From contig JAQGIV010000084.1 of the NCBI GenBank assembly GCA_028290945.1, positions 11,908 through 75,907 on the forward strand: a stretch of DNA of 64,000 nt, in the 5' to 3' direction. Positions 1-2,952 of this stretch are shown one piece after another. The stretch is from Phenylobacterium sp. (GTDB taxonomy: Bacteria > Pseudomonadota > Alphaproteobacteria > Caulobacterales > Caulobacteraceae). The position numbers and the translations under genes are program-made. Each line of letters starts with the position of its first letter. The first letter of the stretch is position 1. The notes below the pieces were generated by a model. That model was not told where the DNA came from, made no database searches, and saw only the letters and a list, made by a program, of their open reading frames with translations.

Positions 1-694
1 GCAGCGCCTGCAGCAGCCGGTGCACGTGCGCGGCGTCGGCCAGGTCCAGGCCGCGGATCACGTGGGTCACGCCCTGCAGGGCGTCGTCGATCACCGAGGC
101 CAGGTGGTAGGCGACGCGTACGTCTTTGCGGGCCAGCACCACGTCGCCGCCGACCTCGGGCCGCGCCTGGACCACGCCTTCGCCTTCGCCCTCGTCCTGA
201 ACCGTGAAGCTCAGGCGCTCGAAGCCGCCGAGCCGCGCCGCCGCGGCGTCCAGCGACAGCCGCCAGGCGTAGGGCGCGCCGGCCGCCAGCTTCTGCGCTT
301 CGTCTTCGGCCGGCAGGGGCGCGCCGCGGAAGGCGTCCATCGGTCCGTGCGGCGCGGCGGCGAACTCGCCCGCGCGCTCGCCGCGGGTGCGGAAGCAGCG
401 GTAGAGCGCGCCCATGGCCCGCAGCCTTTCCAGCGCGGCGTCATAGTCGGCCATGTGCTCCGACTGGCGGCGCACCGGGGTTTCCCAGGACAGGCCCAGC
501 CAGGCCAGGTCCTCGTGGATCGCGGCCTTATATTCCGGCCGGCAGCGGGTGGCGTCGATGTCCTCGATGCGCAGCAGGAAGCGGCCGCCGGAGTCCTTGG
601 CGGCGGCGTGGGCGGTGAGCGCGGAAAAGGCGTGGCCCCGGTGCAGCAAGCCGGTGGGCGAGGGCGCGAAGCGGGTGACGAATGGGGCTGCCAC
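1..694 (-). CDS. gluQ: tRNA glutamyl-Q(34) synthetase GluQRS (5' part; runs off window start)
   Basis: Manual translation from GTG at 694: AAPFVTRFAPSPTGLLHRGHAFSA...LLRIEDID...DVVLARKD...YHLASVIDDALQGVTHVIRGLDL. GluRS-like HIGH region. Not in the ORF track because truncated. Confidence 0.9.
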   Translation of the reverse strand, partial: MAAPFVTRFAPSPTGLLHRGHAFSALTAHAAAKDSGGRFLLRIEDIDATRCRPEYKAAIHEDLAWLGLSWETPVRRQSEHMADYDAALERLRAMGALYRCFRTRGERAGEFAAAPHGPMDAFRGAPLPAEDEAQKLAAGAPYAWRLSLDAAAARLGGFERLSFTVQDEGEGEGVVQARPEVGGDVVLARKDVRVAYHLASVIDDALQGVTHVIRGLDLADAAHVHRLLQAL

Positions 695-703
695 CCCGCC
701 GGT

Positions 704-1330
704 CTAGTCGTGACGGACGTGCAGGAACAGGCCGAGGTGCGCGAACACCGCCTGCAGGAAGGCGGTCTCGCCGCCCAGCTCCTCTTTCAGGTGGTCGAAC
801 TGCTTGAAGCCGGCCATCTCGGCCAGGCCGTGGGCGGCGCACCAGGCCGCGGTGGTGGCGAGCTCGAGGTCGATGGTGGCGGTGGGATCGGCGCCCAGCT
901 CGACCATGGTGTTGCGCACCTTGCAGTAGGCGCTGTCCTCGCTGTCCTGCATGTCCTCGGGCAGGGCTTCCTTGTCGCGGGCGGCGTCGTACATCACGCG
1001 GTAGAGGGCCGGGTTGTCGCGGGCGAAGCAGACGTAGGCGATGCCCAGGGCATTCAGCTTGTTGCGCGTCTCGGCCTGGGCCTTCGCCTTGGCCATGGCG
1101 GCGTCGAGCATCTGCCAGCCTTCGGAGGCGACGGCGTCCAGCAGCTCGGCCTTGTCCTTGAAGTGATGGTAGGGCGCGGCCGGACTGACGCCGGCTTCGC
1201 GGGCCACGGCGCGCAGCGAGAGCGCCGTCGGGCCCTCCGCTTCCAGGATCCGGCGGGCGGCGTCCACCAGGGCGCGGCGCAGGTCGCCGTGGTGATAGGG
1301 CCGAGCTTCAACGGCGTGAGATTCTCTCAT
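704..1330 (-). CDS. TetR/AcrR family regulator with WHG-type C-terminal domain
   Basis: YHHGDLRRALV...LSLRAVAREAGVSPAAPYHHF HTH; C-terminal AWCAAHG. Confidence 0.92.
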   Translation of the reverse strand: MRESHAVEARPYHHGDLRRALVDAARRILEAEGPTALSLRAVAREAGVSPAAPYHHFKDKAELLDAVASEGWQMLDAAMAKAKAQAETRNKLNALGIAYVCFARDNPALYRVMYDAARDKEALPEDMQDSEDSAYCKVRNTMVELGADPTATIDLELATTAAWCAAHGLAEMAGFKQFDHLKEELGGETAFLQAVFAHLGLFLHVRHD

Positions 1331-1350
1331 GGCCCTTCACCTTAATCGAT

Positions 1351-1414
1351 ATCTGGACGACGTAAAGATATCTTGACGCCGCTTAGATGGGTCCTATCTT
1401 AGCACTGTTCAAAT
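1351..1414. promoter_or_regulatory. Three 19-bp ATCT-N11-A(G/A)AT dyad operators overlapping divergent tetR / micro-ORF1 promoters
   Basis: ATCTGGACGACGTAAAGAT 1351-1369, ATCTTGACGCCGCTTAGAT 1370-1388, ATCTTAGCACTGTTCAAAT 1396-1414; TTGACG (1373) + 16 nt + TATCTT (1395). Confidence 0.75.
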
Positions 1415-1461
1415 AGCAAACGCCCTGGCTCCCCACAGGGTTCAATTCAAAGGTGTGTGTC

Positions 1462-1566
1462 ATGTCCCTCGCGATGTTCGAAAGCCTGTTCGACCGTCTC
1501 GCCCCGGCGCTGCTGTTGGTCCTGGGCCTGGCGTCGGCCGCCGCCGTGGCGGGCGTCGGCGCCTAA
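1462..1566 (+). CDS. Hydrophobic micro-protein paralogue 1 (34 aa, MSLAMFESLFDRLAPALLLVLGLASAAAVAGVGA)
   Basis: AAAGG RBS; frame-preserving paralogy with 1698-1802 and 2028-2129; GC3-rich codons. Confidence 0.8.
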   Translation: MSLAMFESLFDRLAPALLLVLGLASAAAVAGVGA

Positions 1567-1585
1567 GACACAGTCGCCGGCTGCG

Positions 1586-1637
1586 TGCTGCACTGCAGCA
1601 GCGGAAATCTTGACGGCGCTCAGATCGTACCTAAGTA
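1586..1637 (+). promoter_or_regulatory. Micro-ORF2 promoter: CTGC-N3-GCAG box plus ATCT-N11-AGAT operator
   Basis: CTGCACTGCAG 1588-1598; ATCTTGACGGCGCTCAGAT 1607-1625; TTGACG 1610 + 16 nt + TAAGTA 1632. Confidence 0.65.
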
Positions 1638-1697
1638 AGCGCCACCATAAGAAACCACCCTCCGCTCCCCCGGAGGTCCAACTCAAAGGTGTGTGTC

Positions 1698-1802
1698 ATG
1701 TCTCTTCGTAGTTTCGGTCGCCTGTTCGACCGCGCCGCTCCGGCGCTGCTGCTGTTCCTCGGCCTGGCGTCCGCCGCCGCCGTCGCGGGTGTCGGCGCCT
1801 GA
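1698..1802 (+). CDS. Hydrophobic micro-protein paralogue 2 (34 aa, MSLRSFGRLFDRAAPALLLFLGLASAAAVAGVGA)
   Basis: Identical TCAAAGGTGTGTGTCATGTC start context to paralogue 1; synonymous changes in the shared C-terminus; followed by a terminator. Confidence 0.8.
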   Translation: MSLRSFGRLFDRAAPALLLFLGLASAAAVAGVGA

Positions 1803-1828
1803 AGCACCTTCCGCAGGCGCGATGTGAG

Positions 1829-1854
1829 AAGGGCCCCTTCGCGGGGCCCTTTTT
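1829..1854 (+). terminator. Rho-independent terminator
   Basis: AAGGGCCCC-TTCGC-GGGGCCCTT followed by a T run. Confidence 0.85.
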
Positions 1855-1912
1855 CGTCGTTCGACCCGCCGGTCCGGCGAGCGCACGTCCCAGCTCATAC
1901 AGAAACGCATAG

Positions 1913-1976
1913 CTGCGGTGCAGCATTCGATATCTAGACACCGTTCAGATACATGCTATCTAAGCATCGTCCAGAT
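1913..1976 (+). promoter_or_regulatory. Micro-ORF3 promoter: CTGC-N3-GCAG box plus two ATCT-N11-AGAT operators
   Basis: CTGCGGTGCAG 1913-1923; ATCTAGACACCGTTCAGAT 1932-1950; ATCTAAGCATCGTCCAGAT 1958-1976 (26-bp offset, as for 1370/1396). Confidence 0.72.
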
Positions 1977-2027
1977 GGACATGCGGTTCGGGTCCCCGGG
2001 CCGCCAACACAAAAAAGGAATTCGACC

Positions 2028-2129
2028 ATGTCGCTCACCCTGAACCGCACCCTCGACGCCCTGGCTTCCTGGGTCGTCGTGATCCTCGGTCTGGCCCTCG
2101 CCGGCGCCACGCTCGCCGTCGGCGCCTAA
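2028..2129 (+). CDS. Hydrophobic micro-protein paralogue 3 (33 aa, MSLTLNRTLDALASWVVVILGLALAGATLAVGA)
   Basis: AAGGA RBS; shared MSL start, LGLA core and VGA-stop. Confidence 0.75.
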   Translation: MSLTLNRTLDALASWVVVILGLALAGATLAVGA

Positions 2130-2152
2130 GGACCCCATGCAAGCCTGCAAGA

Positions 2153-2185
2153 GGCCTCGCCCGCTGCTTTGACCCGGGCGAGGCC
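2153..2185 (+). terminator. GC-rich hairpin after micro-ORF3 (no clear U tract)
   Basis: GGCCTCGCCCG-N11-CGGGCGAGGCC. Confidence 0.45.
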
Positions 2186-2391: not shown

Positions 2392-2952
2392 ATGCAGGTG
2401 CTTAGTCACGCGCCGAATGGCTGGCCGGCGCTCGTGCTCAACGCCGACTTCCGGCCGCTGTCCTATTACCCGCTGTCGCTGTGGCCGTGGCAGGAGGTGA
2501 TCAAGGCGGTGTTCCTGGAGCGGGTCGACGTGGTCTCCAACTATGACCAGGTGGTCCATTCACCCTCCTTCGCGATGCGGTTGCCGAGCGTGGTCGCGCT
2601 CAAGCACTACGTCACCCAGGACCGGCCGCCGGCCTTCACGCGGTTCAACCTGTTCCTGCGGGACTCGTTCGCCTGCCAGTACTGCCACGCGACGGAGGAG
2701 CTGACCTTCGACCACGTGATCCCGCGCTCGCGCGGCGGGCGGACCACCTGGGAGAACATCGTCACCGCCTGCGCGCGCTGCAACCTGACCAAGGGCGGCC
2801 GCACGCCGCGCGAGGCCTCGATGCACCCGCGCCGCCATCCCCGCCGGCCCACCGCCTACGAGCTGCAGGAGCACGGCCGCCGCTTCCCGCCGCACCACCT
2901 GCACGAAAGCTGGCTCGACTACCTCTACTGGGACATCGAGCTGGAGGCTTAG
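2392..2952 (+). CDS. HNH endonuclease family protein
   Basis: RFNLFLRDSFACQYC...TFDHVIPRSRGGRTTWENIVTACARCN. Confidence 0.92.
   Translation: MQVLSHAPNGWPALVLNADFRPLSYYPLSLWPWQEVIKAVFLERVDVVSNYDQVVHSPSFAMRLPSVVALKHYVTQDRPPAFTRFNLFLRDSFACQYCHATEELTFDHVIPRSRGGRTTWENIVTACARCNLTKGGRTPREASMHPRRHPRRPTAYELQEHGRRFPPHHLHESWLDYLYWDIELEA

Follow-up and report, generated by a model that had tools for sequence, protein, structure and literature searches.

In Tn10-type TetR/tetA and in QacR/qacA, a divergent TetR-family repressor acts on a transporter or enzyme gene, and TetR regulators typically gate efflux. Here we describe a locus of comparable layout at positions 704-2185 of a 64,000-nucleotide stretch of DNA from Phenylobacterium sp. 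(GenBank assembly GCA_028290945.1, contig JAQGIV010000084.1, positions 11,908 to 75,907 of the forward strand; this whole stretch is referred to as the window), in which a tetR gene is accompanied by three micro-genes for predicted membrane peptides. The locus shares with the two described systems a divergent TetR-family repressor, palindromic operators over both promoters, the presence of more than one operator and, probably, autoregulation. By contrast, its targets are peptides of 33-34 amino acids (aa) instead of a transporter or enzyme, every extra target possesses its own operator-promoter cassette while cassettes are also dispersed in the genome, and the C-terminal domain of the repressor is TetR_C_33 (WHG type). 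The original prediction, which was made from the letters of the window alone, had proposed a TetR-controlled array of paralogous membrane micro-proteins. This proposal is now supported by cross-genus conservation of the frames, by a ratio of non-synonymous to synonymous substitution rates (dN/dS) that falls below 1 in the proposed frame only, by strict co-occurrence of TetR, operator and peptide, and by stand-alone cassettes. A dedicated TetR regulon of membrane micro-proteins thus appears to be the best explanation for the locus, and we put its probability at about 0.7.

With regard to the products, AcrZ, KdpF, CydX and MgtS represent the same size and topology class of single-transmembrane (TM) accessory proteins, and the xenobiotic-sensing regulators that control AcrZ also control the pump to which it binds. 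Here, by contrast, no pump lies adjacent in the source genome, and several paralogues are expected to be expressed from separate promoters. TisB and DinQ of E. coli are also alike in being very small single-pass inner-membrane peptides with a stress-sensing repressor on their transcription and with structured 5' untranslated regions, whereas the present locus involves another repressor family and signal, its peptides share no sequence similarity with them and no antisense RNA was found. DinQ is a LexA-controlled single-TM toxin (PMC3567139). Searching the literature on TetR together with small membrane proteins, on Caulobacter small proteins and on the peptide motifs uncovered no description of the system, and neither Pfam nor NCBIfam holds a family for it, in agreement with the prediction that it was not a described one. 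The repressor-operator module itself is of a known kind; what is new is the undescribed micro-protein family as its targets.

Micro-genes, operators and promoters

The seemingly empty stretch of about 1 kb between tetR and an HNH endonuclease gene contains three plus-strand open reading frames (ORFs) together with six 19-bp palindromes. The three ORFs fall below the cut-off of the ORF list and had been predicted to share an MSL start, a D, an LGLA core and a VGA end; all three are present, and these features, including an invariant D, are common to the three peptides. Micro-gene 1 (ORF1, 1462-1566, plus strand, 34 aa, MSLAMFESLFDRLAPALLLVLGLASAAAVAGVGA) is of type A, with an FExLFDR head and a TM tail, and micro-gene 2 (ORF2, 1698-1802, plus strand, 34 aa, MSLRSFGRLFDRAAPALLLFLGLASAAAVAGVGA) is a type A paralogue identified by ORF listing, a match within its own genome and alignment. 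Micro-gene 3 (ORF3, 2028-2129, plus strand, 33 aa, MSLTLNRTLDALASWVVVILGLALAGATLAVGA) is of type B, with an NRxLD head and an LAGAT-type tail. Peptide alignment gave 82% identity to ORF1 for ORF2 and 45% for ORF3. An AAAGG/AAGG Shine-Dalgarno box sits about 8-10 nucleotides 5' of each ATG (AAAGG at about 9 nucleotides in ORF1). The G+C content at the third codon position (GC3) is 0.79-0.94, with 0.94 in each of micro-genes 1 and 3, and that at codon position 2 is 0.50-0.59, which is the usual coding signature of a high-G+C genome.

Each peptide opens with a short N-terminal head that is polar or amphipathic and contains a conserved motif ([FL]-[ED]-R-x-[FL]-D-R or N-R-x-L-D). The remainder, some 20 hydrophobic residues with a high share of Gly, Ala and Ser, extends to the C-terminus. 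The C-terminal 19-20 residues are strongly hydrophobic up to the stop codon (best 19-residue Kyte-Doolittle mean 2.15-2.25). Small tandem paralogues that vary between strains could also be precursors of secreted or modified peptides, such as bacteriocins, ribosomally synthesised and post-translationally modified peptides or signalling peptides. However, no modification enzyme, exporter or immunity gene occurs at the locus or at the dispersed satellite cassettes described below, no leader or cleavage motif is present, the peptides are neutral or acidic, and the hydrophobic stretch reaches the last residue, so that we assign the precursor explanation a probability close to nil.

Constraint on the peptides was seen at two levels. 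ORF1 and ORF2 differ by 9 synonymous and 6 non-synonymous codons (dN 0.147, dS 0.457), and from codon 12 on there are 7 synonymous differences and just two replacements, at codons 13 and 20, which bears out the predicted selection on the shared tail. Summed over 19 type A orthologues of 34 codons, dN/dS was 0.48 in frame, compared with 1.0 and 2.25 when the same alignment was read in the two other frames. In addition, start, stop position, frame and hydrophobic pattern are preserved among orthologues while the DNA diverges. On this comparative evidence, the three ORFs are evidently real protein-coding genes that form one family with two subtypes.

The family is mostly unannotated. Pfam returned no family for the peptides at E up to 0.1 and NCBIfam nothing above its cut-off; PEPxxWA-CTERM for ORF3 (14 bits, with the cut-off at 35) was dismissed as compositional. 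Searching public data with a profile built on 21 peptides, with a 40-aa natural homologue as its first row, yielded over 715 clusters, 33-37 aa in length, that lack Pfam domains and are named, if at all, 'hypothetical protein'; the nearest Atlas clusters of the peptides likewise have this name and no Pfam family. The lack of annotation follows from the cluster members being without NCBI protein accessions, while their JGI label is 'hypothetical protein'. One JGI label, 'NADH:ubiquinone oxidoreductase subunit K' for a cluster member, is wrong.

Exactly six dyads of the form ATCT-N11-ARAT are found in the window, at the predicted positions 1351, 1370, 1396, 1607, 1932 and 1958 and nowhere else. 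Shuffled sequences contained 0.85 such dyads on average and 6 at most, with the observed count reached in 0 of 100 shuffles. Sites collected from relatives define a 19-bp palindrome, ATCTnrrCrnyGyynAGAT, and a weight matrix built from them scored the six operators at 27-30 bits and the rest of the window below 12 bits. The same held genome-wide: these six are the only high-scoring sites in the 68%-complete source genome, where the next-best operator-like site reaches 20 bits. That site, AACTGAGCATTGCTAAGAT (G000:C113:3366; L162 2067), lies about 195 nucleotides upstream of a 646-aa gene whose product has a Gly/Pro-rich N-terminus. A loose operator pattern applied to five complete genomes gave mostly chance matches of G+C-rich sequence within genes, and was replaced by the weight matrix and a stricter pattern.

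The operators, given without strand, are O1 (1351-1369, ATCTGGACGACGTAAAGAT, 28.2 bits), which is nearest to the tetR start, O2 (1370-1388, ATCTTGACGCCGCTTAGAT, 27.7 bits) and O3 (1396-1414, ATCTTAGCACTGTTCAAAT, 28.9 bits) in unit 1, O4 (1607-1625, ATCTTGACGGCGCTCAGAT, 27.5 bits) in unit 2, and O5 (1932-1950, ATCTAGACACCGTTCAGAT, 30.4 bits) and O6 (1958-1976, ATCTAAGCATCGTCCAGAT, 28.8 bits) in unit 3. A promoter scan placed the unit 1 promoter, TTGACG-16-TATCTT, at 1373-1400, with the -35 box (1373-1378) inside O2 and the -10 box (1395-1400) overlapping the first half-site of O3. By eye, the unit 2 promoter is TTGACG-16-TAAGTA at 1610-1637 (-35 at 1610-1615, contained in O4; -10 at 1632-1637), and that of unit 3 is TAGACA-16-TATCTA at 1935-1962 (-35 at 1935-1940, contained in O5; -10 at 1957-1962, overlapped by O6). 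The predicted boxes with 16-nucleotide spacers overlapping the dyads are therefore recovered in unit 1 by the scan and in units 2 and 3 by eye. So is the 26-bp offset between the paired operators of units 1 and 3, and relatives repeatedly show offsets of 26-27 bp. The claim that each gene has its own promoter cassette stands as far as a promoter and an operator are present in every unit, but unit 2 has a single intact operator, the distal one. Among relatives, operator starts fall at about -113, -93 and -67 when counted from the ATG of the gene next to tetR; for the other micro-genes the corresponding values are about -96/-91 and -70/-65.

Several smaller repeats accompany these elements. The 3' half of the proximal operator extends into a small palindrome, GTCCAGATGGAC (1966-1980), which is also found in type B or satellite leaders of relatives and would form a hairpin at the extreme 5' end of the transcript. 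GCTGC...GCAGC inverted repeats lie directly upstream of the unit 2 and unit 3 operators (1586-1606 and 1910-1926), and the one between units 1 and 2 gives a weak hairpin after ORF1 (z-score -0.73). Micro-gene 2 is followed by a predicted intrinsic terminator on the plus strand (1821-1858), with a 12-bp G+C stem and then UUUUU (-31.2 kcal/mol, z-score -2.87). After micro-gene 3, a G+C-rich plus-strand hairpin with an 11-bp stem (2153-2185; z-score -1.97 over 69 nucleotides) that lacks a U run could serve as a terminator.

The tetR gene (704-1330, minus strand) encodes 208 aa and was assigned by Pfam matches and orthologues. Its product carries an N-terminal TetR_N helix-turn-helix domain (PF00440, 9e-15, residues 21-67) and a C-terminal ligand-binding helical domain of the WHG type (PF13305 TetR_C_33, 4.2e-11). 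The helix-turn-helix region is invariant across genera, and the closest solved chain is 3on2 (1e-23). A complex of the TetR dimer with peptide 1, modelled for the case that the repressor binds its own product, scored 0.02, giving no support, and we draw no conclusion from it.

Leader hairpin and the transcripts

The leaders of the micro-genes contain predicted plus-strand hairpins at 1422-1441 (micro-gene 1, with a C-rich loop), 1659-1676 (micro-gene 2, CCTCCG-CUCCCC-CGGAGG) and 1983-2004 (micro-gene 3, with a 9-bp stem). The first two rest on folding and on covariation across leaders and the third on folding only, the covariation set covering type A leaders. Among 53 non-redundant type A leaders, the hairpin with a CUCCC-type loop shows compensatory changes in all 5 helix-core pairs. 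Its cells were paired in 90.5% of cases versus 79% in shuffles, and 32 were altered on both sides compared with 8.2 in shuffles, with 0 of 500 shuffles reaching 32; the signal was lost when one arm was slid. Moreover, the 16 nucleotides 5' of the start, AAAGGTGTGTGTCATG, are near-invariant across genera and more conserved than the ORF, and in the source genome they occur only at ORF1 and ORF2. A post-transcriptional layer acting via the leader hairpin is likely because of this covariation and the near-invariant AAAGGTGTGTGTCATG.

These leader properties raise the possibility that the transcripts are non-coding regulatory RNAs with incidental ORFs. However, frame, start, fixed-length stop and hydrophobic pattern survive DNA divergence, dN/dS falls below 1 in the ORF frame only, GC3 is high, and no Rfam match was obtained for 1200-2500 at E up to 1. 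We therefore consider RNA function with incidental ORFs very improbable, and this explanation and that of secreted or modified peptides are both poorly supported.

A conserved 5' leader hairpin would also suit type I-like membrane toxins whose expression a repressor gates, comparable to the LexA-controlled TisB and DinQ. Their induction would depolarise the membrane and slow growth, and the structured leader would hold translation at a low level. The peptides are likewise small (below 60 aa), hydrophobic and single-pass, and their copy number of 1 to 9 per genome, in dispersed cassettes (some at the ends of contigs, one adjacent to an IS110 transposase), fits as well. By contrast, their net charge is -1 to +2 without a basic cluster, and the locus lies in stable core-genome synteny. 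Neither an antisense RNA family in Rfam nor, by promoter scan, a promoter-like site on the array's minus strand was found, both being weak tests for antisense RNA. Toxins of this kind thus represent an improbable, though not negligible, alternative.

Sequencing data added little. A soil metatranscriptome contained one adapter-flanked fragment of 140 nucleotides, 100% identical to 1752-1891 and covering the ORF2 3' end, the terminator and 33 nucleotides beyond. The sequencing runs covered small shares of the stretch, and those of DNA yielded diverged relatives only.

Conservation of the module and extent of the regulon

A TetR orthologue was found in 23 of 24 sampled same-genus genomes, and in genus genomes with the orthologue an ORF of 30-40 codons lies at a fixed distance from it with the same start, stop length and pattern. 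Peptide, start, stop and Shine-Dalgarno box are kept beside the orthologue in nearly all sampled Phenylobacterium and Caulobacter genomes. We fetched 80 TetR loci, from Phenylobacterium, Caulobacter segnis, C. radicis, several Caulobacter sp. and other Caulobacteraceae. Operators of at least 20 bits lie beside tetR in all 80, and a profile search recovered the peptide in 66. Twelve of the remaining 14 (all except L116 and L127) were viewed by eye, of which 11 contain a diverged peptide and one is a contig ending just past the operators. The TetR orthologue is present in 69 of 71 genomes of the GTDB genus to which the named Caulobacter species belong, and three further loci there show operators and one peptide gene each. 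Peptide profile matches in a family-wide sample (52 of 201 genomes, 10 of 27 genera) are a lower bound, as diverged peptides escape the profile. These comparisons indicate that the TetR-operator-peptide module is family-wide across Caulobacteraceae and not confined to this window.

Type A peptides follow the pattern MSLxxFERLFDRxAPxxLLxLGL... and type B peptides M..NRILDxVxSxAxVxLxLxLAGATAxxGA, with type B orthologues holding the same position in relatives; the array here is composed of A, A and B. In single-peptide genera the type A head (FERxFDR) is joined to the type B tail (LAGATAxxG), while in Phenylobacterium the head is retained by type A and the tail by type B. Such a split would fit a division of labour after duplication, perhaps with an A-B heteromer.

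The array is bordered on its 5' side by a gluQ-like gene (2-694, minus strand) beyond tetR and downstream by the HNH endonuclease gene (2392-2952, plus strand), and a sulfotransferase gene is a further neighbour. The order gluQ-tetR-peptides-HNH represents stable core-genome synteny that is the same in relatives, where the peptide genes stand beside the TetR orthologue; the expected conservation of frame and synteny was accordingly observed. At this downstream end (2392-2952; L155 5446-6708), the HNH gene is syntenic in one related species; in one relative a phage-type integrase then follows it, and in another the HNH gene is absent. Distant TetR relatives in other alphaproteobacterial families (L131-L153; E 1e-36 to 1e-48) carry the same ATCT...AGAT operator beside divergent genes for small polytopic membrane proteins (DoxX_2, DUF2306, ABA4-like) or beside no visible target. 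In one of them (L136) a gluQ-like gene again comes after tetR.

The strict operator pattern occurs in 44 of 45 Phenylobacterium genomes, with most sites at the tetR locus, and the reversed-pattern control gave 0 in all. Satellite copies of the peptide genes have no tetR nearby, yet an operator sits about 95 nucleotides 5' of each peptide ATG. Because tetR-less satellites each keep an operator before the ATG, the duplicating unit would be operator, promoter, leader and micro-gene together. The neighbours of the satellites are mixed (EamA, beta-lactamase, CobQ, a Gly-zipper protein, an IS110 transposase, SOUL, a TonB receptor and AcrB), and as a clue to a partner they were heterogeneous and showed no pattern. 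Some satellites lie at contig ends or beside an IS110-family transposase (L043 G216:C67; L176/L178 G015; G216), as expected of repeated, perhaps mobile copies.

Twenty outlying operator sites were fetched from Phenylobacterium genomes. Thirteen of them precede a peptide gene, two of these being tetR loci on other contigs, and two look like chance. One 28-bit site (G650:C56:861; L165) stands before an outer-membrane efflux gene, which adjoins a second and unrelated TetR gene (TetR_C_7) with its own palindrome. In another species, a 28-bit operator (G210:C1:2098570; L159/L163) precedes an outer-membrane efflux gene that opens an OMF-MFP-MFS operon; the distance from operator to efflux gene in both G210 and G650 is about 85-100 nucleotides. 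Two sites, in the close relatives G004 and G020, consist of a single 26-bit operator about 55 nucleotides upstream of gshA, a GCS2-type glutamate-cysteine ligase gene (G020:C90:1986, L172; G004:C14:1017, L173). Two more precede a gene for a membrane protein, whose fetched portion gave no Pfam match and which neighbours a YbjN-like gene, as a canonical pair with 26-bp offset in one genome (G021:C18:161724; L180) and as a single site in the other (G663:C210:1477; L183). A 26-bit operator-like site about 180 nucleotides upstream of an rpoH-like sigma factor gene (G234:C1:1911671; L160) may be chance.

Judged from the placement of these operators, the micro-genes form the core of the regulon and account for almost all of it, with efflux and glutathione genes as occasional additions. 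The original claim of a regulon made of micro-proteins only thus holds for nearly all of it, but across species the operator also stands before an efflux operon, gshA and a membrane-protein gene in a few genomes. The efflux and glutathione targets weakly hint at a xenobiotic or electrophile stress response, and they represent the sole functional hint.

The same operators bear on whether the peptides assemble with themselves or are inducible accessory subunits or modulators of a housekeeping complex in the membrane, for instance an efflux pump or respiratory complex. In the manner of AcrZ, KdpF, CydX or MgtS, they would then alter the activity or specificity of that complex once the TetR ligand is present. 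The habit of the TetR family of gating efflux, the same operator before an OMF-MFP-MFS operon in two species and the DoxX_2, DUF2306 and ABA4-like proteins adjoining the distant TetR relatives are consistent with this idea, and the conserved cytoplasmic head motif together with the LAGATA-type TM motif suggests a specific partner. On the other hand, there is no fixed neighbour gene, satellite contexts are heterogeneous and no pump operator was found in the 68%-complete source genome. We regard accessory function as possible rather than probable.

Proposed mechanism, role and meaning

In the proposed mechanism, which is the best supported one, the peptides would be tail-anchored, single-pass inner-membrane peptides, and the divergent TetR_C_33 repressor would bind the 19-bp palindromes as dimers. 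In every micro-gene promoter the operators cover the predicted -35 and -10 boxes, and they are placed within about 20-85 bp of the tetR start codon, so that without ligand, which is probably lipophilic, the micro-genes and tetR itself would be shut off. With ligand, all genes would be transcribed, each from a separate promoter, and the conserved leader hairpin suggests an extra post-transcriptional step.

Several observations weigh against a dedicated regulon of membrane micro-proteins. The in-frame dN/dS of 0.48 indicates moderate constraint only. No particular ligand can be named, and the solved structures nearest to TetR are regulators without names. Only a few species have the extra regulon members, which are missing from the assembled 68% of the source genome and lie partly beside another TetR gene; this makes the stress interpretation weak. 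Finally, the 140-nucleotide RNA fragment could be read-through or DNA carry-over and is no proof of expression.

As to the role, our guess, held with low confidence, is that the peptides may be effectors of a xenobiotic, electrophile or membrane stress response, because the same operator is found at efflux and glutathione-synthesis genes in some species. They might act by helix packing in the membrane, either among themselves (A with B) or against a housekeeping membrane machine. A fuller version, equally tentative, is that TetR senses a lipophilic or electrophilic compound and switches on tail-anchored peptides, in Phenylobacterium a head-specialised A and a tail-specialised B derived from one ancestral peptide, which might assemble within the membrane or dock on a pump or respiratory complex and thereby alter its activity.

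Annotation routinely misses small membrane proteins, and few of them have a known regulator. The present family comprises more than 700 sequence clusters and has a repressor of its own, an operator that is clear and a genetic layout that is simple; it also offers a clean case of regulon growth by copying operator-plus-gene cassettes. It would be of lesser importance if the peptides turn out to be minor, redundant membrane fillers. The lineage includes genetically tractable Caulobacter species, which makes function directly testable. If the proposal is true, Caulobacteraceae would possess an inducible membrane response whose effectors are almost only micro-proteins.

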